From Alphaproteobacteria bacterium (GTDB taxonomy: Bacteria; Pseudomonadota; Alphaproteobacteria; CBDDJK01), in contig OZ245897.1 of NCBI GenBank assembly GCA_965229675.1, positions 1,185,127-1,249,126 of the forward strand: 64,000 nucleotides of DNA, read 5' to 3'. This document shows, in pieces, positions 5,691-43,265 of the stretch. The notes beneath the pieces were generated by a model. That model was not told the origin of the DNA. It worked only from the letters and a program-made list of their open reading frames with translations, and did not search any database. A program made the translations under genes and the position numbers. Positions within the stretch are counted from its first letter, which is position 1. Each line of letters starts with the position of its first letter.

Positions 5691-7640
5691 TTAAGACGCT
5701 GTTTCAAGGGGGCGTGTCATGAAGGCACTTAGCCGCTTTGCAAATGCCTGTGAATCAACAGGTGGCTCCCCATCAATAATCCGTGCTTGGTCATGTAGCA
5801 TCAAAACAATATCACGTGCTTGATCTTGCTGATCTGTAACCAAGGAAGTTAAATGAAGAATCAAAGGATGATTAGGATTAATTTCCATCTGTTTTAAACT
5901 TTGCTGATCAAGCTGTTTATGTTGCTTTAGCAAGCGTTCCAAATGTAAATCAGGTCCAAACTCACTTGCAACCAAACAAGCAGGCGATTCCGTTAAGCGG
6001 GTTGATAATTTAACATCACTGATATGTTCTTTTAGTTCAGTTTTCATAAAATCAAGCACCGCCTTTTGTTCATCACTTATTTCGGATTTTTTAGCTTCGC
6101 TTTTCTGTTCCTCTTTTGTTGAATCGATTTGATCGGTTTTCGTATCCTGTTCCATATCATCCAAATCCGCACCAGCACGTGTTACTGATTGCAGTTTGAT
6201 GCCATCATATTCGCCAACATAACCGACCCAAAATTCATCAACTGGATCTGTGAATAGTAAAACATCAATAGATTTTGCTTTAAACCCTTCAAGATGCGGA
6301 CTTGCCATAAGGCTGGCTTCATCCTCGCCACTGATATAATAAATTGCTTTTTGCCCCTTGACCATTGCTTCTTTATAAGCTTCCAATGATAGCCATTTGG
6401 ACTTATCGGATTGTATTGATTTAAACCGCACAAGATTTAGCAAACGCGCTTTATCTTCGGCAAAATCGCAAAGCCCTTCTTTCACAACAACCCCAAATTT
6501 TTCCCAAAATTGGTTAAAGCCTTCTTCATCTTCCTTGGCGCGTTTGGTCAAAAGATCAAGCACACGCCCAACCAGATTCTTACTGATTTTACTAATCACA
6601 GGGTTATTTTGTAACATCTCGCGCGAAACGTTTAGCGGTAAATCTTCAGAATCAACAACCCCGCGCATAAACCGCAACCAAGAGGGCAGTAATTGTTCGC
6701 ATTGATCGGTAATAAAAACTCGTTTTACATAAAGCTTAACCCGATTCAAACGCTCTGGATTAAACAGGTCAAACGGACGCTCGCTTGGAATATATAAAAG
6801 GGCTGAATATTCCAACATGCCTTCGGCGCGAAAATGGATATTGCCCCAAGGCTCGTCAAAGCCATGTGAAACATGACGATAAAATTCTTTATGCTGTTCT
6901 TCATCCATCTTTGAAGGAGCTAATGTCCAAGGCGCAGCACCACGATTAATTTGTTCATTTTCATCACCTTCTTCCCCGTCACTGATATGAAGACGGATAG
7001 GAAAGGCAATATGGTTAGAATAGGTGGTTACAATATGCTTGATGCGTTCTGCTTCAAAAAATTCGCTAGCATCTTCCTTAAGTTTCAAACGAATGATCGT
7101 GCCATGATCAGGGCCTTGTTTTTCAGGTGAGACTTTAAAGCCTGTTTTACCATCGCTTTGCCATTGATTAGACTTGCCTTCCCCCGCTTTGGTGGAAATA
7201 ACAGTCACTTCATCTGCAACCATGAAAGAGGCATAAAATCCAACCCCAAATTGACCAATTAAATTGATATCCTTTTTAGCATCACCGCTAACCCCAGCCA
7301 TAAATTCGCGTGTACCAGAGCGTGCAATCGTCCCAAGATTTTCTGTCAATTCCTTAGCACTCATGCCAATGCCGTTATCTTCAACGGTTAAAATACCTGC
7401 TTCTTTATCAACATGCAGAGTAATTCCTAATTCTTGACCATCCTTAATCAATTCGGGTTTAGAAATTGCCTGATAGCGCAAACGGTCACAAGCATCAGCA
7501 GCATTAGAGATTAATTCACGCAGAAAAATCTCGCGTTCAGAATAAAGCGCATGCGTTACAATATCCAGCAACCTTCCAACTTCAGCCTGAAATTCTTGGC
7601 TATGTTCTGTTTGTTTTTTCTGTGCCTTTTTTGCCATCAT
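5691..7640 (-). CDS. htpG: Molecular chaperone HtpG (Hsp90)
   Basis: 649 aa with the GHKL ATPase N-domain motifs LRELISNAADA and GQFGVGFYS and the charged linker of Hsp90. Confidence 0.95.
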   Translation of the reverse strand: MMAKKAQKKQTEHSQEFQAEVGRLLDIVTHALYSEREIFLRELISNAADACDRLRYQAISKPELIKDGQELGITLHVDKEAGILTVEDNGIGMSAKELTENLGTIARSGTREFMAGVSGDAKKDINLIGQFGVGFYASFMVADEVTVISTKAGEGKSNQWQSDGKTGFKVSPEKQGPDHGTIIRLKLKEDASEFFEAERIKHIVTTYSNHIAFPIRLHISDGEEGDENEQINRGAAPWTLAPSKMDEEQHKEFYRHVSHGFDEPWGNIHFRAEGMLEYSALLYIPSERPFDLFNPERLNRVKLYVKRVFITDQCEQLLPSWLRFMRGVVDSEDLPLNVSREMLQNNPVISKISKNLVGRVLDLLTKRAKEDEEGFNQFWEKFGVVVKEGLCDFAEDKARLLNLVRFKSIQSDKSKWLSLEAYKEAMVKGQKAIYYISGEDEASLMASPHLEGFKAKSIDVLLFTDPVDEFWVGYVGEYDGIKLQSVTRAGADLDDMEQDTKTDQIDSTKEEQKSEAKKSEISDEQKAVLDFMKTELKEHISDVKLSTRLTESPACLVASEFGPDLHLERLLKQHKQLDQQSLKQMEINPNHPLILHLTSLVTDQQDQARDIVLMLHDQARIIDGEPPVDSQAFAKRLSAFMTRPLETAS

Positions 7641-7681
7641 GACCCTCTTTTTAAAATTATGTTAATTGCAATCTGTTACCG

Positions 7682-7710
7682 ATATAGGATTGAAATAATA
7701 GGTTTCAAGG
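7682..7710 (-). promoter_or_regulatory. RpoH (sigma-32) type heat-shock promoter upstream of htpG
   Basis: Minus strand reads CCCCTTGAAA-N14-CCTATAT, about 40 nt upstream of the htpG ATG. This fits the alphaproteobacterial RpoH consensus CTTG-N17-CYTATNT and the E. coli CCCTTGAA −35 box. Confidence 0.5.
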
Positions 7711-9009
7711 GGCGGTTTTACTTACAGGGAGGGTGACCTCAATGACGTGTTCGGGTTCAAAAATTAGTTTTAAGTCAACGCGCTCGCCTTCCTCAATAGG
7801 ACGCTGCAATTCCATCAACATAATATGTGCCTTATGCGGGTGAAGATCAACTATTTGTCCACCATCAATGGCAATCCCATCTTTAAGTTCACGCATTTTC
7901 ATAATTTGATTTTCCATGACTGTTTCATGAAGCTTAGTTTTTTTAACAAAATCAGCCCTAACTTCAATTAAGCGGGCTGGACTGCTTCCTTTATTTTCAA
8001 TTGTAATATAGGCTGCGGCCATTGAACCTGCTGGCTGGCGTACCCAACCATCTTTGACCGTTAATTCTGTTTTTGCAAATACGGACTGACCGATCACTGC
8101 TAAATAGCCAATAAACACAACCAGCATAATAAAACCAGCCCATCTTGGCAGTTGGCCTTTTTTAAACCATAACACCGCCCCAACAAATAAGGTGGCGGCG
8201 ATCATCCACGGCACATCACGATGAAGGAATTGTGCATCCATCTCAAGAACACCGAACAGGCTTGCAACCCCAGGGATTGCAAGGGAGTTAAAGCCATTTG
8301 ATCCCAAAATATTTGCAATTGCCATATCGCTTTGTCTTTTCAAAATTGCTGAAAGGGTTGCGACTAATTCTGGAAGGCTGGTGCCAAATGCGACTAAGGT
8401 TAGCCCTATAATCCCTTCTGATACGCCAACGGCTCTTGCTAATTCTGCACCATAAAGAACGACCATATGCGCCCCTCCAAGTAAGCCGACAAGACCAATG
8501 ATCGCAAAGAGGACGCTGATCAAAAGTGTGGAGGGGGCTTCTGTGTCCTTCTCATCCTCACCATCTTGATCAAAACGTAACGCATAAAAGAAATAGCCAA
8601 TTAAACCAGCAAGCATGATCCCTCCTGCCCATGGGTTTAAGGCGCCTAAATAAACAAAACCAGCAAGCACAAAGGTTGATACTACCATCAAACCATTGTC
8701 ACGCATCACAGAATGAACTGCCCCTGATAAAGGCATAATTGCTGCGCCAAGGCCCAGAACCAGTAACAGGTTCATAATGTTACTGCCGATGATATTGCCA
8801 ACAGCGATGGCATCTTTGCCGCCAATATTTGCCTCAACCCCAATAAATAATTCTGGCGCAGAGGTACCAAATCCCATCACCACCAAACCGATTAAAGCAG
8901 GCGATACACCAAGGCGATTGGCAAGCCCTAAGCCGCCGCGCACCAATATATCACCGCCGCCAATTAATAAAATCAACCCCAAAATTGTTAAGAAAATTGT
9001 TAATAGCAT
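7705..9009 (-). CDS. CaCA-family Na+/Ca2+ exchanger (YrbG-like) fused at the C-terminus to a PCu(A)C copper-chaperone domain
   Basis: Residues 1 to about 320 carry two alpha-repeats (GTSAPELFIGV and GTSLPELVATL) across roughly 10 TM segments. Residues from about 325 onward match the PCu(A)C/DUF461 pattern: V.DGWVRQP…AAYITIENKG, then the H(M)x10M and HxM copper motifs (HETVMENQIMKM, HPHKAHIMLM). The ORF is continuous with no internal stop. Confidence 0.7.
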   Translation of the reverse strand: MLLTIFLTILGLILLIGGGDILVRGGLGLANRLGVSPALIGLVVMGFGTSAPELFIGVEANIGGKDAIAVGNIIGSNIMNLLLVLGLGAAIMPLSGAVHSVMRDNGLMVVSTFVLAGFVYLGALNPWAGGIMLAGLIGYFFYALRFDQDGEDEKDTEAPSTLLISVLFAIIGLVGLLGGAHMVVLYGAELARAVGVSEGIIGLTLVAFGTSLPELVATLSAILKRQSDMAIANILGSNGFNSLAIPGVASLFGVLEMDAQFLHRDVPWMIAATLFVGAVLWFKKGQLPRWAGFIMLVVFIGYLAVIGQSVFAKTELTVKDGWVRQPAGSMAAAYITIENKGSSPARLIEVRADFVKKTKLHETVMENQIMKMRELKDGIAIDGGQIVDLHPHKAHIMLMELQRPIEEGERVDLKLIFEPEHVIEVTLPVSKTAP

Positions 9010-9010
9010 G

Positions 9011-10231
9011 TTACACCTCGTCTAATGCATGTTCCAGATCAGCGATTAAATCGCCAACCGCTTCAAGACCCGTTGAAAAGCGAAGTAGCCCATCAACAAT
9101 TCCTTGTTTCTTTTTTTTCTGATCGGATAATTTACTATGCGTTGTCGTTGCAGGATGCGTCATTAGGCTTTTTGCATCACCAAAATTATTTGAAATATCA
9201 ATCAAATTCAGGCGATTCAGCACATTAAACGCATCTTGCTGATTGCCATCCTTCAAAATAAAGCTAATCACTGTGCCAAAATTGGTCATTTGTTGCTTAG
9301 CTAAACCATATTCGGGGTGACTGGCAAGCCCTGGATAGCATACAGATTGGATTTTAGGATGCTGTTCAAGAAATTCCGCGATGGTTTTTGCCGAATGGCT
9401 CATTGCATCAATGCGAAGCTTCAAAGTCTCCAATCCTTTTTCTAAGATCCAGCCATTAAAAGGGCTAAGGCCAGGTCCTGTATGGCGGATAAATGGTCGC
9501 AAATAATCTTCAATAAAGTCATTGCTTGAAATAACCACGCCGCCAAGGCAACGCCCTTGTCCATCAATATGTTTTGTGGATGAATAGGTTATAATATCTG
9601 CACCAAGCGATAATCCAGCCTGCGTACCAGGCCCTGCCATCCCACCATCCAGCACAACCCATGCGCCATGATTATGGGCAATTTTACTAATTTTGCGAAT
9701 ATCCAACACATGCAACATTGGATTAGTTGGGCTTTCAAAAAAAGCAAGTTTGGCACCAGATTTTTTGAACGCAGTTTCCCATTGGCTAAGGTCTCTTCCA
9801 TCAACAAAAATAGTTTCAATGCCAAAACGCGGTAGAATTTCTGATAAAATATAGGTGCAGGAATAAAATAATTGGTTTGCCGCAACTAATTTATCGCCTG
9901 ACTTTAAACAGCTTGCTAAAACTGCAAAGATTGCTGACATGCCTGTTGCCGTGGCGATACAGGCATCCCCGCCTTCAAGCACAGCCATTTTTCGTTCAAA
10001 CACGGAAAGGATTGGATTGGCATAGCGTGAATAAATGTAATTATCGGTTTCTCCACGAAAGGCTGCCGCCGCCTCTTCCGCACTGTCATAAACAAAGCCT
10101 GAGTTCATAAAGATGGGTTCATTGGTCTCTTTATAGTGGGTGCGTTTATAACCACCACGAACAAGATAGCTTTGAGGTTGCCAATTTTTTCTATTCATTG
10201 GTCGGCCTTTGCCATCCATTGACAAGCCCAA
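9011..10231 (-). CDS. metZ: O-succinylhomoserine sulfhydrylase (PLP-dependent, Cys/Met metabolism family)
   Basis: 406 aa Cys/Met-metabolism PLP enzyme (SSTKHIDGQG with the lysine, FSTGLEAVGDLIADL C-terminus). The likely true start is MNRKNWQ at about 10198. Confidence 0.8.
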   Translation of the reverse strand: MGLSMDGKGRPMNRKNWQPQSYLVRGGYKRTHYKETNEPIFMNSGFVYDSAEEAAAAFRGETDNYIYSRYANPILSVFERKMAVLEGGDACIATATGMSAIFAVLASCLKSGDKLVAANQLFYSCTYILSEILPRFGIETIFVDGRDLSQWETAFKKSGAKLAFFESPTNPMLHVLDIRKISKIAHNHGAWVVLDGGMAGPGTQAGLSLGADIITYSSTKHIDGQGRCLGGVVISSNDFIEDYLRPFIRHTGPGLSPFNGWILEKGLETLKLRIDAMSHSAKTIAEFLEQHPKIQSVCYPGLASHPEYGLAKQQMTNFGTVISFILKDGNQQDAFNVLNRLNLIDISNNFGDAKSLMTHPATTTHSKLSDQKKKKQGIVDGLLRFSTGLEAVGDLIADLEHALDEV

Positions 10232-11423
10232 CGGATAACCATAAACCCATCACACCCCAGCTTGAAAATAAGCTACTTGTTGAAATAACAGGCCATAATT
10301 CAGCCAAAAGCAGCGCAAATGCCCCAATAAATTGACAATCTTGACGCCAATCCCGCCAATTTTGTATGCTTTTTGCGAATAAGAAATAAATCATTGCTAA
10401 AAATAAGCAAAGACCGATCAGGCCATTTTCAACCCATAGCTCCAAATAAATATTATGTGGATGGGTCAGACATGGCTCCGTTGCATAATCAGGTTTTTGA
10501 CAATAAAGGCGATAATGCTTTGTGCCGATTCCAAAAATCCAATGATCTTTGGCAATTAATAATGTGTTTTGATAAACATTACCGTAATCAGAGGCTTTAA
10601 AATCAGCAAGTTTTGCAACTGTATTTTGAATTTGACGATTTTTAACTGCATCATCATTGATAAAAATTGCCCCTAACACCACCGCATGAATTGCAAGGAT
10701 TGAAAGAATAATCATACGATAACGCATTTCAAACAAAAGGATTATAACAAACAAGCCAAATCCTGATAATAATAATGGGCTACGCTCTCCGCTAACAACA
10801 ACGCCAATAAAAGGGATCAGCATCACTGCCACAAGCAATAAACGGATTAGATTAGTGCGTGTTTTAAAAAAATAAGCGGTTGCCCAGCCAAACGATAAGA
10901 GTGCAAATGGATAAAGAACATTGCCAAAAATGGGTGAATTAAACCATGCGGTTAGGCGGATTGAACTGTGAGGCAGGCTTCCAAATAAATCTTGCCCGAA
11001 ACCATATTGAATTAAACCGTCTATGGCTAAAATCATTCCTGAAAGCACTAACACAGGGTAAAACCAGCGTTCAACCAAAGGGTTTTTTATCAACCAATGG
11101 CTAATCGCCATGGCAAATAAACCATAACGGATGAAAGGTAATGCGCGTTCCAAACCAAATAAGGGCTGTTCTGCAAATAAACAGCGGATGATCATCCACC
11201 CCCATAATCCCAAAAATGCTAAAAACCATTTTTGCTTAACCCATGCAAAATCTTTTTGAAGCGAACTATGGATTAGAAACAAAAACCCAATAAGGGATAA
11301 GGTTACATCGGCAGGGGCGCGCCCAACCGCCATCATTGCTGGAAATAGGACAAACAAACCAACAGCGACCTGATTAAGCCGCTTTAAAAGCAAAGAAGTA
11401 TTAGCAGTTATAGCGAAATTCAC
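10191..11423 (-). CDS. O-antigen ligase / Wzy_C-family polytopic membrane protein
   Basis: About 12 TM segments with the periplasmic-loop motif H..HN.YLE..VENGLIG (THPHNIYLELWVENGLIGL) typical of the WaaL/O-antigen polymerase family. Confidence 0.6.
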   Translation of the reverse strand: MNFAITANTSLLLKRLNQVAVGLFVLFPAMMAVGRAPADVTLSLIGFLFLIHSSLQKDFAWVKQKWFLAFLGLWGWMIIRCLFAEQPLFGLERALPFIRYGLFAMAISHWLIKNPLVERWFYPVLVLSGMILAIDGLIQYGFGQDLFGSLPHSSIRLTAWFNSPIFGNVLYPFALLSFGWATAYFFKTRTNLIRLLLVAVMLIPFIGVVVSGERSPLLLSGFGLFVIILLFEMRYRMIILSILAIHAVVLGAIFINDDAVKNRQIQNTVAKLADFKASDYGNVYQNTLLIAKDHWIFGIGTKHYRLYCQKPDYATEPCLTHPHNIYLELWVENGLIGLCLFLAMIYFLFAKSIQNWRDWRQDCQFIGAFALLLAELWPVISTSSLFSSWGVMGLWLSVGLVNGWQRPTNE

Positions 11424-11942
11424 TTAATCAAATTCAGGGCGTGCCAAGGGCGGGCGTGGCCATGCCAAAACAGCATCTTTAATCACTTCAAACCACAAGG
11501 TCATTTGCGCTTGATCAATTTCTTCCACTGGTTTTATAAATGCTTCATCTATTAGATTCAAATGACTGCGAATCAATTCTGCTTGTAAATTAAACCATGG
11601 AGCTGGCACCCGATCAAATGCAATTGCTTTTTTACCTGGTTCTAGCGAAGCCCATTTAATCTCACTGCCATGTAGGGTAGGAGGCGGTAAGGCTTTACTT
11701 TCCATTCGTTCCACCGATTGCAAGATAAAATCATGCATCGCATCACGAAAAGCAGTATATTGTGGCTTGATTAATTCTTCCCATTCGGGTTGTTCTTGTG
11801 CGCGTTTGTGAAGGGTTTTACTGATCACTTCAAGGCGTAAATATTCTGCTAAATCCACCTGTTCTTCTGCATTAGTGGTGTCATTCACAAAAGATAATAG
11901 CAACATTACAGCTATTAACTTATAAAATTTAATCTTTATCAT
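11424..11942 (-). CDS. Hypothetical exported protein with an N-terminal signal peptide
   Basis: 172 aa starting MIKIKFYKLIAVMLLLSFVNDTTNA. Its ATG overlaps the TGA of the hydrolase gene fragment (ATGA). The first 8 codons are duplicated at 14718-14741. Confidence 0.5.
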   Translation of the reverse strand: MIKIKFYKLIAVMLLLSFVNDTTNAEEQVDLAEYLRLEVISKTLHKRAQEQPEWEELIKPQYTAFRDAMHDFILQSVERMESKALPPPTLHGSEIKWASLEPGKKAIAFDRVPAPWFNLQAELIRSHLNLIDEAFIKPVEEIDQAQMTLWFEVIKDAVLAWPRPPLARPEFD

Positions 11943-12275
11943 GGTATTTCATTTCCTAAAAAATCAATGATTGGCTTAATTTGATCCTCGTAAAACAAAG
12001 AAGGCGCATGCCCACAACCATCCAATGCTAAATAGCGCACTTTATACCCTGTCTCAACCATTTTACATGCTGTTTCATTCGATAATAAATCTGATTCGAT
12101 CCCACGAATCAACAAGATAGGCATGGTTGCATGTTTCCAAAATGGCCATAGATCAAGATCACTTTTCGCTAAATCTTTAAAATTATCTGAAAGTGCAGGA
12201 TCATAACTGCGAACATAACCGCCATCAGGATGTGGTTTAAGGCTAATCTCAGCTATAAATTTCCAGTCTTCATCG
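11920..12275. repeat. Copy 1 of a 356-bp direct repeat (about 95% identical to 14719-15074)
   Basis: Aligned by eye, the two copies sit at a constant offset of 2799 bp from 11920/14719 to 12275/15074 with a handful of mismatches, then diverge. Confidence 0.85.
11939..12275 (-). pseudogene. 3' fragment of the alpha/beta-hydrolase gene (truncated duplicate of 14738-15074)
   Basis: The 61-aa ORF MPILLIRGIESDLLSNETACKMVETGYKVRYLALDGCGHAPSLFYEDQIKPIIDFLGNEIP is nearly identical to the C-terminus of the 296-aa hydrolase at 14738-15628. DNA identity extends over about 356 bp. Confidence 0.85.
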
Positions 12276-12376
12276 ACAGCACATACGCACCAAGAATATC
12301 TGATTTGTCGGCATCTTAGACGAAAAGATCAATAATTTTAATGGACTCTTTTATAATAATTCTAAATTTTATCGCA

Positions 12377-14118
12377 TTAAAACTTAAAGTCAATTTGTAA
12401 CTTAGCGGTGTTATGTGCTTCGCTATCATTAAAACTAGGATTATGGGTAAGGTCAACTGCACCCATTAGCCTATCATTCAAACTATTAAATTTTAATCCC
12501 ATGCCAAAGATTTGTCCACTTGTATCGGTGAAATTCGATTTCAAATAAGGACTGGCGATGCCGATATTTTGCTGATTATTAGCATTGACATTGAAGCCAT
12601 AGGCAATAAGACCAGACAGATTATATTCACTATAATCATTGCGTCCAACAACACCAGATGATTCTAATGTTCCAGACCATCCAATATCATCGGATGCAAT
12701 AAGCACGCCACCGCCAATATTGAACGCCCCACTATCGCCATTGGTTTTATCGGTGAAATCATGCAAATAATCTGTTTTGAAAAATGGCTGAATGGTAGCA
12801 TCACCCGATGTCGTGCGATAGGAAATTTCAATCCCCGGTCTCAGTTGTCTAGTATTACTGGTTTCGCTATCGACCACTGTTCCATCACTTTCGCTATAGC
12901 CATCATTTTTCTTGCGGGCGAATAAAAAACCAAGGCGTGGTTTTAATTCTAATCCCTGATTAGCTAAAGGCGTAAATTTACCTTCGGCCAGAATATCAGC
13001 GAACCAGTTTATAGAGTTTGTGTTACTGGTCACCGTTTCATTATCGCGGTTTTGATTAATAGAACCATGAGCATAACCTGCCATGGCAGTAATGGATAAA
13101 TCAGGTCGCACACGATAAAGTGCATAGGGTGTTATTGACTTGCTTGTTTCGTCATAATCACCATCGTTAAAATTGGTGGTAAGGTTGGTTTCGCTATACC
13201 CTACGCTTACGCCAGCGGTTAGGCGATCATTATAACGATAATCCCCACCTAAATTATAGCCCCAAACATCACCAGAATAAGCCCCATCAGCACTATCATT
13301 ATCAACATTTGACTGATTGGCCTGCCCCCAAATTGTGAAACGGCGATTATCCAGCTCTAGTCTTTGTTGATCTGGCATACCAGTGGTATCCCCATCTGTG
13401 GACAAAATTAAATCATTGCTGTTAAATGATAATTTATTAAATAATTCACGCAAATCGCCTTGACGATAGGTAAGTTCATCATTTGCCGACAAGGAAGTTG
13501 CAAAACCTGTATTTTGTGTGGTTAACGCACCAATACCAGCAGACAAATTACTTAAATGGCTTTGCACATTATTGACCGTCACATTGGTCTGTGAACGCGA
13601 AATAGACGCAAACATATTGGTTCGTGAAGATATATAATGGGCAGAATCACCCGGAACACTACATGTTGCCGAAACGCTGTAAGAAAAATTCAAATTATTA
13701 AGGGCACTGATCATAAAACTGCTGCCCTCTTTCTCAATTGTATATGAATATGCTTGACTATCTTTTCGGTTCAATGTGAGGACTGCTATCTCATCTCCAT
13801 CATTTATAAAATCATTTGTATCTGTATAATAAATAGCTACATCAACCGAAGCTGCGCTCGAACTGTCATCTCTGGGACGCTCTACTGTAAACGTAATCCT
13901 CTCCCCGACAAACAACCCCCGATCATTATAAAAAACACGCAGATAATAATACTGACCATCAAAACCATTTTCAATAAAATCAGGTTCAGAAGTGAAGTTA
14001 GCACACCCCTCCGATATGGCCCAAGCGGGATTAGGTAGGGAAGTTACCCCCCCCCGCAAATCAGGGCGGTTAACGCCAATTTGGCAAAATTTTTCTTCAA
14101 ATGGTTAAAGCTAAGCAC
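12377..14118 (-). CDS. Autotransporter (type Va) outer-membrane protein whose signal-peptide coding region is interrupted by a +1 frameshift in a G9 homopolymer (candidate phase-variable gene, currently OFF)
   Basis: The C-terminal ~280 aa form an autotransporter beta-barrel ending KLQIDFKF with a terminal aromatic residue. The annotated frame 12377-14059 has no signal peptide. A second frame starts at GTG 14118 with a GAGG ribosome-binding site 7 nt upstream and encodes MLSFNHLKKNFAKLALTALICGGG before hitting TAA directly after the G9 tract (plus-strand C run 14047-14055). A G10 or G7 tract would fuse this signal peptide in frame to …VTSLPNPAWA|ISEG (AxA cleavage site). Confidence 0.7.
14047..14055 (-). 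repeat. Homopolymeric G9 tract (C9 on plus strand), a slipped-strand mispairing site within the autotransporter 5' coding region
   Basis: Nine consecutive C residues on the plus strand. Frame analysis shows the tract separates the signal-peptide frame from the mature-protein frame. Confidence 0.8.
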
Positions 14119-14158
14119 CCAAAAACCTCAATTTTAAATTATATTCACAAAGCGCAAA

Positions 14159-14731
14159 ATGCAGGCTATGATCAAGAAGTCAAGAAAAAATCATTTAACT
14201 AAGGTATTGATGATCATGTTCTACGATTCCTATATCAATCCATTGAATAACGCAATTATCTTTATTGTTCAACTGATAAATAATTGCCCAGTCTATATGT
14301 CTGCTGATAGGTCTTTGCAAAATAGCAAGCGCACTATTGTTATGGTGGAGTCGAATAAACTTCTGGAATTATGGCGAAACGATCCACTTACGCGTCATGC
14401 TGAAATTGCTTACGGAAATCCTGAAAGCTGGTGTAAAGATTATAAATATCATAATGCAGAACAAGGATTTTTAGCGGGCAAAGACAATCCCGTTCCGCTT
14501 GCCGAAATTTCCTATCAGGAATTATCCGAAGCCTATCACAAAAAGAGAGTGACAAGCAGGTTGTTTCAACAAAACCCAAAGAAAATATCTTGTATTTCCT
14601 TTACCAATGGCATTACAAGAACAATCTGGCTTTTATCAAATGGTGCAAGCCATTTTCCTGTTGAATTATATGATTTTAGTGAAGCCGAAAAATTGGCTAA
14701 CATTATGCAAACAGAAATTTATAAAATTTAA
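14159..14731 (+). CDS. Hypothetical protein with a C-terminal ParB/sulfiredoxin-like motif
   Basis: 190 aa, transcribed divergently from the autotransporter. The C-terminal region ISFTNGITRTIWLLSNGASHFPVEL resembles the ParB/Srx-fold signature (DGxHRxxAhxxxGxxxhPV). The last 12 nt overlap the start of repeat copy 2. The exact start is uncertain. Confidence 0.4.
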   Translation: MQAMIKKSRKNHLTKVLMIMFYDSYINPLNNAIIFIVQLINNCPVYMSADRSLQNSKRTIVMVESNKLLELWRNDPLTRHAEIAYGNPESWCKDYKYHNAEQGFLAGKDNPVPLAEISYQELSEAYHKKRVTSRLFQQNPKKISCISFTNGITRTIWLLSNGASHFPVELYDFSEAEKLANIMQTEIYKI

Positions 14732-15074
14732 TCTTTATCATGGTATTTCATTTCCTACAAAATCAATGATTGGCTTAATTTGATCCTCGTAAAACAAAGA
14801 AGGCGCATGCCCACAACCATCTAATGTTAAATAGCGCACTTTATACCCTGTCTCAACCATTTTACATGCTGTTTCATTCGATAATAAATCAGATTCGATT
14901 CCACGAAGCAACAATACAGGCATGGTTGCGTGCGCCCAAAATGGCCATAGATCAAGATCACTTTTCGCTAAATCTTTAAAATTATCTGAAAGTGCAGGAT
15001 CATAACTGCGAACATAACCGCCATTAGGATGCGGTCTAAGGCTAATCTCAGCCATAAATTGCCAATCTTCATCG
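14719..15074. repeat. Copy 2 of the 356-bp direct repeat (the 3' end of the intact hydrolase gene plus the first 8 codons of the downstream exported-protein gene)
   Basis: See copy 1. It contains the intact hydrolase stop and the ATGA junction. Confidence 0.85.
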
Positions 15075-15628
15075 CCGCGAATGCCAAATGGTTGATAAAT
15101 CTCCCGAATATGGGCGATAGCTTCATCATAATTTTTGAAATGCCATGGAATTGCACAATATTCAGCAATGCGTTTTAACGCATTCTGTTCCAAAAAAGGC
15201 CCAACATCATTCAAAACCAAGCGGCGAATTGACCAATCTTGTTCGCTTTCACCTGCCGTCATACAATGCGCCAAGGCAATCAACCCACCCATTGAGGTGC
15301 CAACCCAATCAATCTCTCCTGCAAGAACGCCAGCATGGCGTAACATAAGTTGAATATCCGATAAATATTGCGGAATCGCATAATCTGCTGAATTTGTTAA
15401 AATATCACTTCTTAGCCTACCTGCCATATCAGGGCATAGGACGCGAATATCTTTATCGACAATTAACTGTTGCGCCAAACGATCAAAATCACGGCCATTG
15501 CGGGTAAGCCCATGAACGCAAACAATAATATGCTTTGCCTCAATCGCTCCCCAATCGGAATAAACCAGTCGATGCACTCCCTTTGAATCAGGGCATTCAA
15601 CAACGCCTTCACGAAAAATTGGGGGCAT
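14738..15628 (-). CDS. Alpha/beta-hydrolase fold protein
   Basis: 296 aa with the HG oxyanion region (VCVHGLTRNGRDF) and a GTSMGG nucleophile elbow (GxSxG). The start overlaps the stop of the upstream binding-protein gene by 1 nt. Confidence 0.75.
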   Translation of the reverse strand: MPPIFREGVVECPDSKGVHRLVYSDWGAIEAKHIIVCVHGLTRNGRDFDRLAQQLIVDKDIRVLCPDMAGRLRSDILTNSADYAIPQYLSDIQLMLRHAGVLAGEIDWVGTSMGGLIALAHCMTAGESEQDWSIRRLVLNDVGPFLEQNALKRIAEYCAIPWHFKNYDEAIAHIREIYQPFGIRGDEDWQFMAEISLRPHPNGGYVRSYDPALSDNFKDLAKSDLDLWPFWAHATMPVLLLRGIESDLLSNETACKMVETGYKVRYLTLDGCGHAPSLFYEDQIKPIIDFVGNEIP

Positions 15629-30869: not shown

Positions 30870-33305
30870 ATGTCAAACACACTACCAAGCCAAGCAAAAT
30901 GTGTGATTGTAGGTGGCGGTATTATGGGGGTTGGGCTTGCCTATCACCTAGCGCATGCTGGCTGGCAGGATGTCGTATTGATTGAAAAGGCAGAATTAAC
31001 TTCTGGTTCAACATGGCATGCGGCGGGGCAAATTACCCAATCAACTTCCAGCTTTGGCCTTGGTAAATGTGTTGATTATAATTTGCAGCTTTACTCAGGT
31101 GGGCTTGAACGTGAAACAGGGCAAGCGGTAACGTTTCATGGTTGTGGTTCACTTCGCCTTGCTTATAGTGAAGATGAGTTAGATTGGTTAAAACATACGC
31201 TTTCGGTTGGACGCTCCCTTGGGTTTAATATGGAGCTTGTTGATCCACAACGTATTAAACAACTTCATCCATTTTATAAGCTTGATGGCGTATTGGCGGC
31301 ATTACATACGCCCGATGATGGCCATGTTGACCCAACCAATGTCACAATGGCAATGGCAACAGGAGCGCGCCAACAAGGGGCAAAATTATTTCGTCATTGC
31401 CGTGTGCTTAATATTACGCAACTTGAAGATGAGGGATGGCGCATAGAAACTGAATTAGGCACCATTGATTGCGAGCATGTGGTAAATGCCGCTGGTACTT
31501 ATGCACGGCAAATCGGTGAATGGTCAGGGTTGCAATTACCAATGACTTCAATGACCCATCATTATCTGGTTACTGAAGAAGTTCCTGAATTTAAAGACTT
31601 AACCACGGAATTGCCTGTGATCCGTGATGATCGTATGGTCTCTGGTTATATTCGTATGGAGCAAAAAAAGGGACTGATTGGCATTTATGAAAAAGAAAAC
31701 CCAAATAGCGTATGGGAAGAATTTTGTCCATGGGAAGCAGAAAACGAGCTTTTTGCCGCCGATTATGATCGGATTATGCCATGGCTTGAACAGGCAATGG
31801 ATCGTATGCCCGTTTTGGCACCGCTTGGTATTTTACGCGAAGTTCATGGGGCAATCTCCCATCCTCCTGATGGCAATCCGTTGATTGGCCCTGCCCCCAA
31901 TGTTCGCAATTATTGGTGTTGTTGTGGAACGCAAATTGGTATTGGTTGGGGGCCTGGTCTTACTCGTGAATTGGCACGATGGATGGTAAACGGTGCCGCC
32001 GATATTTCGATGCGTGAATATGACCCACGCCGATTTGGTGATTATGCAAAACCAGCTTGGCAAGTGTTAAAAGCAAAAGAAGATTATTGTCTGCGCCATG
32101 AAATTCCTTTTCCACATTTTAATCGGCTTGAAGGTCGCCCAATCAAGCCATCAGGATTATATGAAATCTTAAAAGAAAAAGGGGCGGTTTACGAGGAAGT
32201 CTATGGCCATGAACGCCCGCGCTGGTTTGCAGGCGATGGGATTGAACAACGCGATTATTACAGCTTTCGCCGAAATGAAGTTTTTTCGCGCATAGCCCGT
32301 GAAGTAAAAGGCGTGCAAACTTCCGCTGGTATCATGGATATTTCTGCATTCACCAAAATCGAGGTTAGTGGGACTGATGCAGCAGCAATGCTTGAACCTT
32401 TAGTTGCCAATCGCTTGCCTAAAAAAACAGGTGGAATTGCGCTAACCCATATTTTGAATGAAGCAGGACGCATTGAACTTGAAACGACCCTTATTCGTCT
32501 TGAGGACACACGCTATTATTTTGTATGTGCCGCCTTTTTTGAACAAAGATTGCTTGACCATCTTGAAGCGCATCGCAAGACATTTGATATAACGATCGTC
32601 AACCATTCTCAAAATTGGGGTGCGCTTGCCCTGAATGGCCCTTGCGCCCGCCAGATATTAGGGGCTTGTACCGATGCTGATCTATCAAATACAGGTTTTC
32701 GTTGGTTGAGCGCACAGCAAATTTCAATCTGTGGTCATGCCGTTTGGGCGTTTCGTATATCTTATGCGGGTGAATTGGGTTGGGAATTACATGTGCCGAA
32801 CCAAGTAATAGCAGAAGTTTATGCAGGTTTAGAACAAGCAGGAAGACCACTTGGCATGGTTGATTATGGTAGCTTTGCCATGAATAGTATGCGAATGGAG
32901 AAGGCTTTTAAAGGCGCAGGAGAACTGACCAACGAAGTGACATTACCTGAAGCGGATGTTATGCGTTTTGTTGATCAAAATAAATCATTTATTGGGAAGC
33001 AAGCAACCCTATCTAATCCACCAAAATGGATATGTGCCTATCTTGAAATTGAAGCGGACGGCATCGAAGACGGTAACGGAGGTGAATCGGTACTAATCAA
33101 TGATCAGGTAATCGGTTCGGTTTCCAGCATTGCTTATGGTCATCGTGTAAATAAATTATTGGCTTTTGCTTATATTAAACCAGAGAGCTATATTAAAGGG
33201 CAAGCGGTGACGGTTATCATTGCAAATAAACCACGCGCAGGAATGATTTTAGGTGACGAGGCGGCTTATGACCCTGAAAGCAAATTGCCAAGAACAGAAG
33301 GCTAA
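30870..33305 (+). CDS. Dimethylglycine/sarcosine-dehydrogenase-like FAD oxidoreductase with a C-terminal GcvT-type folate-binding domain
   Basis: 811 aa. The N-terminal is a DAO-type FAD fold (VIVGGGIMGVGLAYHLAHAGW). The C-terminal ~350 aa form an aminomethyltransferase (GcvT) domain. This is the same architecture as DMGDH, SardH and the HpbA-type N-methyl-amino-acid demethylases. Confidence 0.8.
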   Translation: MSNTLPSQAKCVIVGGGIMGVGLAYHLAHAGWQDVVLIEKAELTSGSTWHAAGQITQSTSSFGLGKCVDYNLQLYSGGLERETGQAVTFHGCGSLRLAYSEDELDWLKHTLSVGRSLGFNMELVDPQRIKQLHPFYKLDGVLAALHTPDDGHVDPTNVTMAMATGARQQGAKLFRHCRVLNITQLEDEGWRIETELGTIDCEHVVNAAGTYARQIGEWSGLQLPMTSMTHHYLVTEEVPEFKDLTTELPVIRDDRMVSGYIRMEQKKGLIGIYEKENPNSVWEEFCPWEAENELFAADYDRIMPWLEQAMDRMPVLAPLGILREVHGAISHPPDGNPLIGPAPNVRNYWCCCGTQIGIGWGPGLTRELARWMVNGAADISMREYDPRRFGDYAKPAWQVLKAKEDYCLRHEIPFPHFNRLEGRPIKPSGLYEILKEKGAVYEEVYGHERPRWFAGDGIEQRDYYSFRRNEVFSRIAREVKGVQTSAGIMDISAFTKIEVSGTDAAAMLEPLVANRLPKKTGGIALTHILNEAGRIELETTLIRLEDTRYYFVCAAFFEQRLLDHLEAHRKTFDITIVNHSQNWGALALNGPCARQILGACTDADLSNTGFRWLSAQQISICGHAVWAFRISYAGELGWELHVPNQVIAEVYAGLEQAGRPLGMVDYGSFAMNSMRMEKAFKGAGELTNEVTLPEADVMRFVDQNKSFIGKQATLSNPPKWICAYLEIEADGIEDGNGGESVLINDQVIGSVSSIAYGHRVNKLLAFAYIKPESYIKGQAVTVIIANKPRAGMILGDEAAYDPESKLPRTEG

Positions 33306-40062: not shown

Positions 40063-41643
40063 TTACTCAGCCGTGCCTAATTCAGCTTTACGGTTTTTAA
40101 TATATTCCTGCAATTTTCCATCAATCATTGAATCCAATTCAGGGGCTTGATAGGTTTCAAGTGCCTGCTTCCATGCCTTATTTGCACGCGTACTCATATC
40201 AAGCTCACCTTCTTGTAGCCATTGTTCATAGCTATTATGATCCATCAAAGGCGAACGATAAAAAGCAGACTCAAAGTTACGAAGCGTATGATTGCATCCA
40301 AGATAATGACTGCCAGGACCAACCTCTTCAATTGCATCCATTGCCTGCCCTTCTTCCGTAAAATCAGGGCCATTAGCAAAGCGTACCATCATCGCTGCTT
40401 GATCAGCATCCATCATAAATTTTTCATAACTCATCACCAGCCCGCCTTCCAGCCAGCCTGCGGTATGTAGCATGAAATTCACGCCGCCTAATAATGCAGT
40501 TTGTAGCGTATTTGCAGATTCAAATGCAGCTTGTGCATCAGGAATTTTTGAACCACATAACCCACCACCAGAACGAAATGGAATGCCAAGACGGCGTGCA
40601 AGCTGTCCTGCGCCATAAAGCACCCATGACGCTTCAGGTGTACCAAAAGTTGGTGCGCCTGATTGCATTGAAATTGAGGCCGCAAATGTTCCAAACACCA
40701 CGGGCGCACCTTTTCGAACAATTTGGGTAAGTGCCGCCCCACTTAAAACTTCTGCATAGATTTGAGCAAGCGTGCCTGCGGCGGTTACAGGACTCATCGC
40801 CCCTGAAAGAATAAAGGGGGAGACAACACAGGCTTGATTATTGCGCGCATAAACTTTTAATGCGCCAAGCATCATATTATCCCACACCATCGGACTGTTG
40901 GCATTGATCAAGTTTAACATCACACAATTTTGATCAACAAAGTCTTCACCAAAGACAATTTTACAAAGTTCAACGCTATCTTGCGCGCGTTCAGGAGCCG
41001 TCACTGACCCCATGAATGGCTTATCACTGTAACGAATATGCGAATAAACCATATCAAGATGGCGGACATTCACAGGAATATCAACAGGTTCGCAAACCGT
41101 TCCCCCTGAATGTTGCAATCCGGGGGAGAGATAAGCAAGTTTCACAAAATTTTCAAAATCTTTAAGGGTGGCATAACGCCGTCCTCCATCTAAGTCCCTT
41201 ACAAAAGGTGGACCATAGGCTGGCACAAGTACAATATGCTCCCCACCAATCATCACGGAACGTTGCGGGTTTCGGGCATGTTGCATAAATTCCTTGGGTG
41301 CATTATCTTGAATCAGGCTTTGGCAAAGCCCTTCAGGAAAACAAACGCGCGAGCCATTAACCTTACATCCCGCATCGCTGAGTAGGCTTAAAACTTCTTC
41401 ATCTTCACGAAAATCAATGCCATATTGGCTTAAAATTCGATTGGCATTGCCTTCAATCTGATCAAGCTGGGCTTCAGTTAATAAAGTAAAAGGTTCAAAT
41501 TGACGTTTAACAATCGCTCCGCCACTGGCGGCAGCCTTTGCTGTTTCTTGACGCGCAGCTTGACGTCCTGCTCTTCCGCCACCAGAGCGTCCCCCACCAG
41601 CACGGCGTTTCGTTTCAGCATGTTCACTCGATTGTTGTTCCAT
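40063..41643 (-). CDS. MttB-superfamily methyltransferase (non-pyrrolysine; quaternary-amine:corrinoid/THF methyltransferase-like)
   Basis: 526 aa TIM-barrel MttB-family member with no in-frame amber codon, and an RGG-rich N-terminal extension (RRAGGGRSGGGRAGRQAARQ). Confidence 0.7.
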   Translation of the reverse strand: MEQQSSEHAETKRRAGGGRSGGGRAGRQAARQETAKAAASGGAIVKRQFEPFTLLTEAQLDQIEGNANRILSQYGIDFREDEEVLSLLSDAGCKVNGSRVCFPEGLCQSLIQDNAPKEFMQHARNPQRSVMIGGEHIVLVPAYGPPFVRDLDGGRRYATLKDFENFVKLAYLSPGLQHSGGTVCEPVDIPVNVRHLDMVYSHIRYSDKPFMGSVTAPERAQDSVELCKIVFGEDFVDQNCVMLNLINANSPMVWDNMMLGALKVYARNNQACVVSPFILSGAMSPVTAAGTLAQIYAEVLSGAALTQIVRKGAPVVFGTFAASISMQSGAPTFGTPEASWVLYGAGQLARRLGIPFRSGGGLCGSKIPDAQAAFESANTLQTALLGGVNFMLHTAGWLEGGLVMSYEKFMMDADQAAMMVRFANGPDFTEEGQAMDAIEEVGPGSHYLGCNHTLRNFESAFYRSPLMDHNSYEQWLQEGELDMSTRANKAWKQALETYQAPELDSMIDGKLQEYIKNRKAELGTAE

Positions 41644-41765: not shown

Positions 41766-43265
41766 TTAAGCAGAACCAGGGAAGTTTAATTGTGCGCCAG
41801 CGCGAATCCCTGTTGGCCATCTGGAAGAAACCGTTTTAAGGCGGGTGTAAAAATTAATTCCTTCTGGTCCATAAATTGGATTAGAGCCAAAGAAAGACTG
41901 TTTCCAGCCGCCAAAAGAGTGGTACGCAACAGGAACGGGAATTGGCACATTGATTCCAACCATGCCAACTTCAATATGATTAGCAAAATTACGTGCCGCA
42001 TCGCCATCACGGGTAAAAATGGCAACTCCGTTGGCATAATGGTGATTATGGATCAAGGAAACAGCATCGTCAAATGAATCTACGCGAACGGTTGATAGAA
42101 CTGGGCCAAAAATCTCTTCACGATAAATTGACATGTCTGGTGTAACCCGATCAAATAAACTGCCTCCCATGAAGAACCCATCTTCATAGCCCTGCATTTT
42201 AAAATCACGCCCATCAACAACCAGTTCTGCCCCTTCTTTCACACCTTGATCAATATAATCTACAACCCGATCATAATGTTGCTTGGTTACTAAAGGCCCC
42301 ATTTCAGCAACCTTATCAGTAGCAGGGCCAATTTTTAAACTTGAGACACGCGGAGCTAGCTTATCAATAAGCCGATCAGCCGTTTCTTGACCAACAGGAA
42401 CAGCAACCGAAATTGCCATGCACCGTTCGCCAGCCGAACCGTAACCCGCACCAATCAAAGCATCTGCAGCTTGGTCTAAATCCGCATCTGGAAGAATGAC
42501 CATGTGGTTTTTCGCTCCACCTAAGGCTTGCACCCGCTTATGATTTGCGGTTCCTGTTTGATAGACATAGGCGGCAATCGGCGTTGAGCCAACAAAGCTA
42601 ACCGCTTTAATATCTGGATCGGTTAAAATCGCATCTACAACCTCTTTATCACCATTAACCAGTTGTAAGACATTCGGCGGGAAGCCAGCTTCAATAAATA
42701 ATTCATAAAGCAATAATGGCGTGGATGGATCGCATTCTGAAGGTTTTAAAATAAAACTATTGCCGCAAACAATGGCAAGAGGGAACATCCATAACGGCAC
42801 CATCGCAGGAAAATTAAATGGTGTAATTCCAGCACAAACGCCCATCGGCATCCGCAAAGTGTAGCTATCAACCGCAGGCCCAACATTTCTGGAATACTCA
42901 CCTTTAAGCAGATGAGGAATACCGCAGGCAAATTCAACATTTTCAATCCCGCGTTGAACTTCGCCTAGCGCATCTTCATAAACTTTGCCATGTTCTTCAC
43001 CAAGTAGCTTTGCAAGCTTATCTTGATTTTTAACCAGCAATTCACGGTAAGCCATCATCATACGTGCTTTTTTGGCAGGTGGCACCTCGCTCCATTCAGG
43101 AAAGGCTGCTTTGGCTGAAGCCACAGCTTGCCGTAATTCATCCGCACTGCATAAGCCTAAACTTGCAGTCTGTTGACCCGTTGCTGGATTATGAACTGCG
43201 GAAACACGCCCACTTGCAGTATGAAACACAGCCCCATCAATCATGCTATGAATTGGCTTGGTCAT
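41766..43265 (-). CDS. mmsA: CoA-acylating methylmalonate-semialdehyde dehydrogenase
   Basis: 499 aa ALDH-superfamily protein with an MMSDH-type N-terminus and catalytic Cys (GERCMA) and no catalytic-Glu ELGG motif, consistent with the CoA-acylating subgroup. Confidence 0.8.
   Translation of the reverse strand: MTKPIHSMIDGAVFHTASGRVSAVHNPATGQQTASLGLCSADELRQAVASAKAAFPEWSEVPPAKKARMMMAYRELLVKNQDKLAKLLGEEHGKVYEDALGEVQRGIENVEFACGIPHLLKGEYSRNVGPAVDSYTLRMPMGVCAGITPFNFPAMVPLWMFPLAIVCGNSFILKPSECDPSTPLLLYELFIEAGFPPNVLQLVNGDKEVVDAILTDPDIKAVSFVGSTPIAAYVYQTGTANHKRVQALGGAKNHMVILPDADLDQAADALIGAGYGSAGERCMAISVAVPVGQETADRLIDKLAPRVSSLKIGPATDKVAEMGPLVTKQHYDRVVDYIDQGVKEGAELVVDGRDFKMQGYEDGFFMGGSLFDRVTPDMSIYREEIFGPVLSTVRVDSFDDAVSLIHNHHYANGVAIFTRDGDAARNFANHIEVGMVGINVPIPVPVAYHSFGGWKQSFFGSNPIYGPEGINFYTRLKTVSSRWPTGIRAGAQLNFPGSA

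Follow-up and report, generated by a model that had tools for sequence, protein, structure and literature searches.

A single unbroken open reading frame (ORF) of 434 aa, with an ATG start and lying on the minus strand at positions 7705-9009 of a 64,000-nucleotide stretch of contig OZ245897.1 from an alphaproteobacterium (the whole of this stretch is called the window in what follows), joins a YrbG/NCX-type Na+/Ca2+ antiporter of the CaCA superfamily to a PCuAC domain, the Cu(I)-binding module of periplasmic copper chaperones. The fusion appears to be built from two well-known parts in an architecture that is itself new, and its probable nature is that of a lineage-specific in-frame fusion, in which an ordinary antiporter carries a periplasmic Cu(I)-binding domain, either tethered or released; it looks like an evolutionary accident and not like a new copper transporter. 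An earlier note on this DNA had given the coordinates and the single 434-aa frame correctly, and had left the strand unstated.

Two known proteins in one chain

Joint MAFFT alignments of the fusion, the antiporters and the PCuACs misplaced the PCuACs onto the antiporter part, and separate alignments (A3, A4, and A5) were used instead. That the N-terminal part is a complete antiporter core with both alpha-repeats, as the earlier note had read it, is confirmed by two matches to Pfam Na_Ca_ex (PF01699; E 6.7e-53), by the NCBIfam model TIGR00367, “calcium/sodium antiporter” (215.4 bits against a cut-off of 179.65), and by the signatures GTSAPEL and GTSLPEL, which are invariant columns in the antiporter alignment A4 (79 sequences, 77 of them unfused relatives); the narrower equivalog model of E. 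coli YrbG, NF008005, is not reached by the fusion protein (174.9 bits against a cut-off of 432). In a search of the PDB sequences, fusion residues 4-304 align end to end with residues 5-297 of NCX_Mj (E 6e-32), and a full-chain AlphaFold run, whose multiple sequence alignment (MSA) consisted of two fusion sequences and the 77 unfused antiporters, gives ten helices with a predicted local distance difference test (pLDDT) above 90 (residues 2-33, 37-62, 66-91, 98-120, 126-149, 162-193, 198-223, 227-251, 259-282, and 289-311). The two alpha-repeats, the ten helices and the ion-coordinating residues are thus what the fusion has in common with the YrbG/NCX_Mj-type antiporters; the alphaproteobacterial proteins annotated as “calcium/sodium antiporter” are 40-46% identical to its residues 1-309, and the difference is one of length, as the 77 aligned unfused antiporters stop at about residues 306-310, whereas the fusion runs on for 125 residues more.

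The twelve ion-coordinating positions of NCX_Mj that were used (A47, T50, S51, E54, S77, N81, A206, T209, S210, E213, S236, and D240) have as their equivalents in the fusion G46, T49, S50, E53, S76, N80, A207, T210, S211, E214, S237, and N241, all of which except G46 are invariant across the 79 sequences. The Asp of NCX_Mj at position 240 is replaced by N241, an Asn that is invariant in the unfused relatives and is also found at this position in eukaryotic NCX. Compared with NCX_Mj and the 77 unfused relatives, the ion-site positions show no additional Cys, Met or His, and the best explanation, at the level of sequence, is that the antiporter half would continue to exchange Ca2+ for Na+.

As for the C-terminal part, the earlier note had assigned it to PCuAC together with its copper ligands, and the search with hidden Markov models does place it in this family: Pfam PCuAC (PF04314) matches residues 318-424 with a score of 105.9 bits (cut-off 29.4; E 1.3e-30), from position 1 to position 108 of the 109 in the profile. 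In the PDB sequence search the Thermus PCuAC (2k6w) matched fusion residues 319-430 (E 9e-18), and 9rez and 9yah were also matched. A second AlphaFold run, limited to the C-terminal 148 aa and with 22 stand-alone PCuACs in its MSA, gives a pLDDT of 91-95 across the PCuAC domain; with Foldseek this model matches 9yah, 2k6w, and 3zja (AccA, the Thermus PCuAC, and Streptomyces ECuC) with E values of 1e-10 to 3e-11, and its target-normalized TM-scores against solved PCuAC structures are 0.86-0.92. A cupredoxin-like beta-sandwich fold is supported for the fused domain by the two programs together.

The copper motif of the fused domain, H361-x10-M372-x22-H395-x-M397, fits the published Cu(I) motif of the PCuACs, HXnMX21/22HXM (PMC13006917; also PMC7558416), so that the domain has the pattern of the primary Cu(I) site. 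Neither the four ligands nor the HIMLM core varies in the PCuAC alignment A3, made up of 23 sequences (the fusion and the 22 stand-alone proteins), and H361, M372, H395, and M397 would be the residues that bind Cu(I). These results support the view that the C-terminal domain is a genuine PCuAC that keeps its Cu(I) ligands. The fold, the Cu(I) motif and HIMLM are shared with the chaperones Thermus TTHA1943, Rhodobacter PccA, Bradyrhizobium PcuC, and Neisseria AccA, and the stand-alone PCuACs are 31-38% identical to the fused domain over the alignment as a whole, with local values reaching 44%. Unlike them, however, the fused domain has the tenth transmembrane helix (TM10) of the antiporter in place of a signal peptide, has its PGG turn replaced, and is joined to a polytopic membrane protein; moreover, the His/Met tail that is present in the closest stand-alone relatives is absent from it.

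Junction and topology

The end of the unfused antiporters aligns with Q308 (“...YVLAAQG*” vs. “...YLAVIGQ”), and in A3 the mature stand-alone PCuACs start at positions aligned with fusion residues 308-313; the join is therefore seamless, and TM10 replaces the signal peptide, whose h-region in the stand-alone PCuACs is overlaid in A3 by R289 to G307. The fused PCuAC has neither a signal peptide of its own nor a separate start, TM10 being found at that position. Between TM10 and the first beta-strand of the PCuAC fold there is a linker of only about four residues.

In the 10-TM topology of the CaCA proteins the C-terminus lies outside the cell (PMC3667879), and the loop between TM9 and TM10, KKGQLPR, is of the positive-inside kind. 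By homology to this topology, and given the positive charges before TM10, the fused PCuAC domain should be periplasmic, which lends support to the location proposed in the earlier note.

From there, two fates can be envisaged for the domain, to remain tethered or to be released. The residues before K313 conform to the -3/-1 rule of signal peptidase I (V at -3, A at -1), and a release of the free chaperone after V-F-A312 is possible, in which case TM10 would be an internal signal peptide and one gene would give two products. Two features speak against such a cut: the hydrophobic stretch, at about 18 residues, exceeds what is usual in cleaved signals, and the AlphaFold helix extends to residue 311. 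An arrangement of this kind exists in the Alphaproteobacteria, in the FbcH cytochrome b-c1 polyprotein of Bradyrhizobium, where the last transmembrane helix is an internal signal and the periplasmic domain is cleaved off; in FbcH, however, the cleavage has been demonstrated, while in the fusion it is suggested by the V-F-A found at -3 to -1 after TM10.

Reality of the fusion and variation among its alleles

At 90% identity the fusion forms a protein cluster of three members, all at least 96% identical. The first allele, identical to the window protein, is on an NCBI/ENA contig of 2,467,266 bp, and the other two come from the ENA assembly ERZ25074195, on contigs 137 kb and 203 kb long. All three are alike in size (434 aa) and in junction, and 31-35 synonymous differences separate the window sequence from either of the remaining two; given that the frame is intact in spite of these changes, it must have been maintained through real divergence. 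The alternative, that two adjacent genes were merged by an error of sequencing or assembly, or that an unnoticed internal start makes the PCuAC separately, has nothing positive in its favor, the suspicion arising solely from the rarity of the architecture, and it is effectively refuted: three contigs, drawn from two data sets or more, agree in frame and junction, and no stop or frameshift splitting two genes, which would have undone the reading of the earlier note, was found. An internal start or a frameshift remnant at the junction was considered and rejected, as both alternative frames are closed at the junction and hold no relic of a signal-peptide-like ORF, there is no Shine-Dalgarno (SD)-like sequence before M295, the only in-frame Met of TM10, and scans for promoters and terminators gave matches at the level of chance.

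The two halves of the gene have been subjected to different constraints (Fisher p = 1.3e-5). Among the three alleles, the antiporter part has 32 synonymous and 4 nonsynonymous changes, with a ratio of nonsynonymous to synonymous rates (omega) of about 0.04 pooled and 0.03-0.06 pairwise, and residues 310-434 have 13 synonymous and 21 nonsynonymous changes, with an omega of about 0.44 pooled and 0.28-0.56 pairwise, which is still below neutrality (p = 0.019). For the neighboring genes of the same strain pairs omega is 0.03-0.29, where the differences suffice to estimate it. Most of the variable PCuAC residues (14 of about 20) are in the two ligand-bearing loops (residues 355-402, window 7819-7950), in which the Cu ligands and HIMLM are unchanged in all three alleles and the PGG turn reads PHK in the allele of the window and PRE in both others. 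In addition, two extra His residues, H390 and H392, precede H395 in the window allele, where the other alleles have Arg, an arrangement that recalls the “track” of AccA (PMC13006917).

Between the window and one of the related contigs (L005) most genes are 100% identical, with a divergent tract of about 2 kb (approximately 7000-9000) that comprises the fusion gene and the first third of htpG; further divergent tracts are those of EamA and SBP_5 (15.6-18.5 kb, 95%) and of Wzy_C (10191-11423, 93%, gapped). These tracts are read as a recombination mosaic among co-occurring strains.

Distribution and comparison with known systems

Among the best 120 matches of the full-length protein against 5.8 billion clusters there was no other CaCA-PCuAC fusion beyond its own cluster, every other top match being an antiporter about 305 aa long, with 46% identity at most. 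An index-free HMMER scan of 1.84 billion representative proteins, in which a fusion should outscore any single-domain match, likewise gave no other among its best 150, and is silent on divergent fusions below about 171 bits. A junction-spanning protein query recovered only stand-alone PCuACs (147-203 aa, at most 44% identical); it also missed the protein P0001, which is about 89% identical over that region, so that retrieval by word index can overlook close relatives and its negatives are unsafe alone. Two scans of metagenome contigs gave no further alleles, and a scan of genome contigs for the unfused ancestral state found unrelated PCuAC or antiporter loci only.

Some long or odd matches of the HMMER scan proved to be of other kinds, and none of them is a fusion. 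The protein P0167 is a triple PCuAC of 511 aa, with three tandem domains separated by Gly/His/Met-rich linkers. In the antiporters P0180, P0194, and P0006 the first half is repeated almost exactly, which gives three Na_Ca_ex stretches; these are perhaps tandem duplications or artefacts of assembly.

The earlier note did not recognize the architecture as described, and in the literature searched no description of PCuAC/DUF461 joined with CaCA/YrbG was found either; the architecture appears to be undescribed. The comparative evidence is limited, given that the lineage is poorly sampled: the HtpG encoded beside the fusion places the bacterium in the Alphaproteobacteria, and its nearest relatives are 63% identical (an unclassified metagenome-assembled genome) and then 58-59%, and the nearest named ones (Marivibrio, Hwanghaeella, Curvivirga, Aestuariispira) about 54%.

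The use of PCuAC as a module of a larger protein has precedents in the DUF1775(YcnI)-PCuAC fusions, in PmoF and in the tandem PCuACs (PMC8424229; PDB 6p16, 6p1g; P0167). However, in the known multi-domain PCuAC proteins the partners are themselves copper-binding, whereas here the partner is a Na+/Ca2+ exchanger without a known copper role. A further comparison is with YcnJ of Bacillus subtilis, a CopC-CopD fusion, in which an extracytoplasmic copper-binding domain is likewise carried by a polytopic membrane protein (PMC7558416); but there the membrane partner, CopD, is a permease for copper, and CopC is paired with CopD in many lineages, while the CaCA core of the fusion has Na+/Ca2+ ligands only and is found with PCuAC in one lineage. 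Neither copper-type membrane ligands nor a recurrent or neighboring pairing of the two families, as in YcnJ, was found for the fusion.

Origin and function

If we accept the fusion as a lineage-specific event, the mature part of a pcuAC that had lost its signal peptide would have been attached in frame to the natural C-terminal end of a YrbG/NCX-type antiporter gene, the likeliest route being a deletion from the stop codon of the antiporter through the signal-peptide region of a pcuAC located downstream, an ancestral arrangement that was not observed. TM10, running from the cytoplasm to the periplasm, would then do the job of the signal peptide and direct the Sec-dependent translocation of the 122-residue PCuAC domain, which would remain tethered by its short linker or would be freed by signal peptidase I, and which, like the other PCuACs, would probably still serve the assembly of cuproenzymes. 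Antiporter and chaperone would in this way share a polypeptide and an export route, but not a mechanism; on tethering as opposed to cleavage, and on the absence of coupling, we infer from the evidence discussed here.

Several observations weigh against such an account. The PCuAC part is approximately ten-fold less constrained than the antiporter part, and the PGG turn before HxM, at least 90% conserved in the other PCuACs, has been replaced, from which it follows that this part may be losing its function. The full-chain AlphaFold run gives the PCuAC part a pLDDT of 28-65 and no confident position, and no inference about docking was drawn from it. Around htpG in the nearest relatives (63% and 59% HtpG identity) there is no synteny, and no adjacent yrbG-pcuAC pair was seen, and at the two closest viewable loci of stand-alone PCuACs the neighbors are Nramp, CDF, HMBD, and NicO, with no antiporter adjacent.

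Taken further, the loss of constraint would mean that the PCuAC part is a decaying passenger, the product of a recent accident, that is no longer needed (for example, because of another pcuAC copy) and is drifting, so that only the antiporter is functional. We hold this to be unlikely, but by no means negligible: the pooled omega of the PCuAC part exceeds that of most neighboring genes as well as that of the antiporter, the near-invariant PGG has changed in different ways in different alleles, the His/Met tail of the closest relatives is missing, and the fusion is limited to one narrow lineage. However, a domain that was simply drifting would not be expected to keep its Cu ligands and HIMLM in every allele, nor to remain free of stops and frameshifts at a synonymous divergence (dS) of about 0.1 with an omega below 1, and a PCuAC fold is predicted for it with confidence. 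Periplasmic chaperones, moreover, commonly evolve faster than the cores of transporters. Nor does the lack of a tail decide against function, as that of AccA is dispensable and there are functional PCuACs, the Thermus protein among them, that have no tail (PMC13006917).

A different proposal is that the two halves work together, the CaCA core moving or gating Cu(I) and passing it to or from the tethered PCuAC, or the occupancy by Cu(I) gating the flux of Ca2+/Na+; it is close to the copper-handling role that the earlier note had suggested, with the chaperone at the periplasmic mouth of the antiporter. With so short a linker, the Cu site would be held against the transporter at its membrane face; there are precedents for the fusion of a periplasmic Cu-binding domain to a permease, YcnJ among them (PMC7558416); and the gene is intact in its three alleles. 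Nevertheless, we find this proposal very improbable and do not uphold the role suggested, because the ion site is the canonical Na+/Ca2+ set of the 77 unfused relatives, with no soft Cys, Met or His ligand, because the architecture was found once in the searches, in a single cluster of at least 96% identity, and because strong constraint is seen on the antiporter and not on the PCuAC, whereas two co-adapted halves should show a different pattern; ion site, single lineage and unequal constraint each speak against a coupling in this protein. To this can be added that no gene-neighborhood tie between the two families exists at the nearest PCuAC loci, and that none of the 55 larger ORFs called in the window is a cox, sco, copA or other copper or cytochrome-oxidase gene.

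Returning to the lineage-specific fusion of an ordinary antiporter with a Cu(I)-binding domain, its interest, if the domain is functional, would be that a secreted metallochaperone without a signal peptide can reach the periplasm by means of an unrelated transporter, whose last helix runs from inside to outside. The fusion is also a caution for inferences of the “Rosetta-stone” type, as two known domains in one chain need not share a function. If, on the contrary, the coupling were true, the CaCA superfamily would gain its first copper-linked member, and the finding would bear on the Cu(I) supply of the PCuACs, a matter in which the direct transfer of Cu from CopA2-type ATPases to periplasmic chaperones is still to be established (PMC7558416).

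Genomic context

The gene order Wzy_C, metZ-like, fusion, htpG is common to the window and to two related contigs, and the base composition is native in both halves of the fusion gene. The coordinates of the fusion, of its parts and of its immediate neighbors are collected in Table 1, where the SD-like GAGGTG at the end of the metZ-like gene is listed as a putative translational coupling of the fusion gene to that gene.

Table 1. Window coordinates of the fusion gene, its domains and predicted ligands, and the adjacent genes.
Feature	Positions	Strand	Basis
Whole fusion ORF, 434 aa and stop codon	7705..9009	minus	ORF call; same as database protein P0144
CaCA (YrbG/NCX-type) antiporter core, residues 1-309	8083..9009	minus	Pfam, TIGR00367, NCX_Mj match, AlphaFold
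Alpha-1 repeat signature GTSAPEL, residues 48-54 (ion ligands T49, S50, E53)	8848..8868	minus	
Alpha-2 repeat signature GTSLPEL, residues 209-215 (ion ligands T210, S211, E214)	8365..8385	minus	
TM10, residues 289-311, after the positive loop KKGQLPR, at the place of the signal-peptide h-region	8077..8145	minus	AlphaFold, A3
Junction Q308-S-V-F-A312/K313 (end of antiporter homology, start of mature-PCuAC homology)	8071..8088	minus	
PCuAC domain, residues 313-434 (Pfam match 318-424), without His/Met-rich C-terminal tail	7708..8073	minus	
Predicted Cu(I) ligand H361	7927..7929	minus	Invariant column, alignment A3
Predicted Cu(I) ligand M372	7894..7896	minus	Alignment A3
Predicted Cu(I) ligands H395-I-M397, within invariant HIMLM	7819..7827	minus	Alignment A3
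SD-like GAGGTG, 5 nt before the fusion ATG, within the last codons of the upstream gene (putative translational coupling)	9014..9019	minus	
Upstream gene, Cys_Met_Meta_PP family (metZ-like), stop codon 1 nt before the fusion ATG	9011..10231	minus	
Downstream gene htpG, 64 nt past the fusion stop codon	5691..7640	minus	

The 55 larger ORFs of the window were surveyed for the most part by direct Pfam match, with seven assigned through their counterparts in the related contigs L001 and L005 and two left unmatched. Among the other contents of the window, positions 11939-14737 are a strain-specific insertion, as in two related contigs the abhydrolase gene directly abuts a gene of 172 aa. The insertion holds an ORF with an autotransporter beta-domain (12377-14059, minus strand; PF03797, E 1.3e-28) and an ORF for a PFIN “plasmid fertility inhibition factor” (14159-14731, plus strand; PF22162, E 2.5e-34), and a 61-aa ORF at 11939-12124 resembles a duplicated C-terminal end of the abhydrolase encoded at 14738-15628. 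Further along, a dimethylglycine-dehydrogenase-like gene (DAO+GCV_T, 30870-33305), an MttB-family methyltransferase (40063-41643) and an aldehyde dehydrogenase (41766-43265) suggest a catabolism of methylated amines or glycine betaine, as in marine Alphaproteobacteria.

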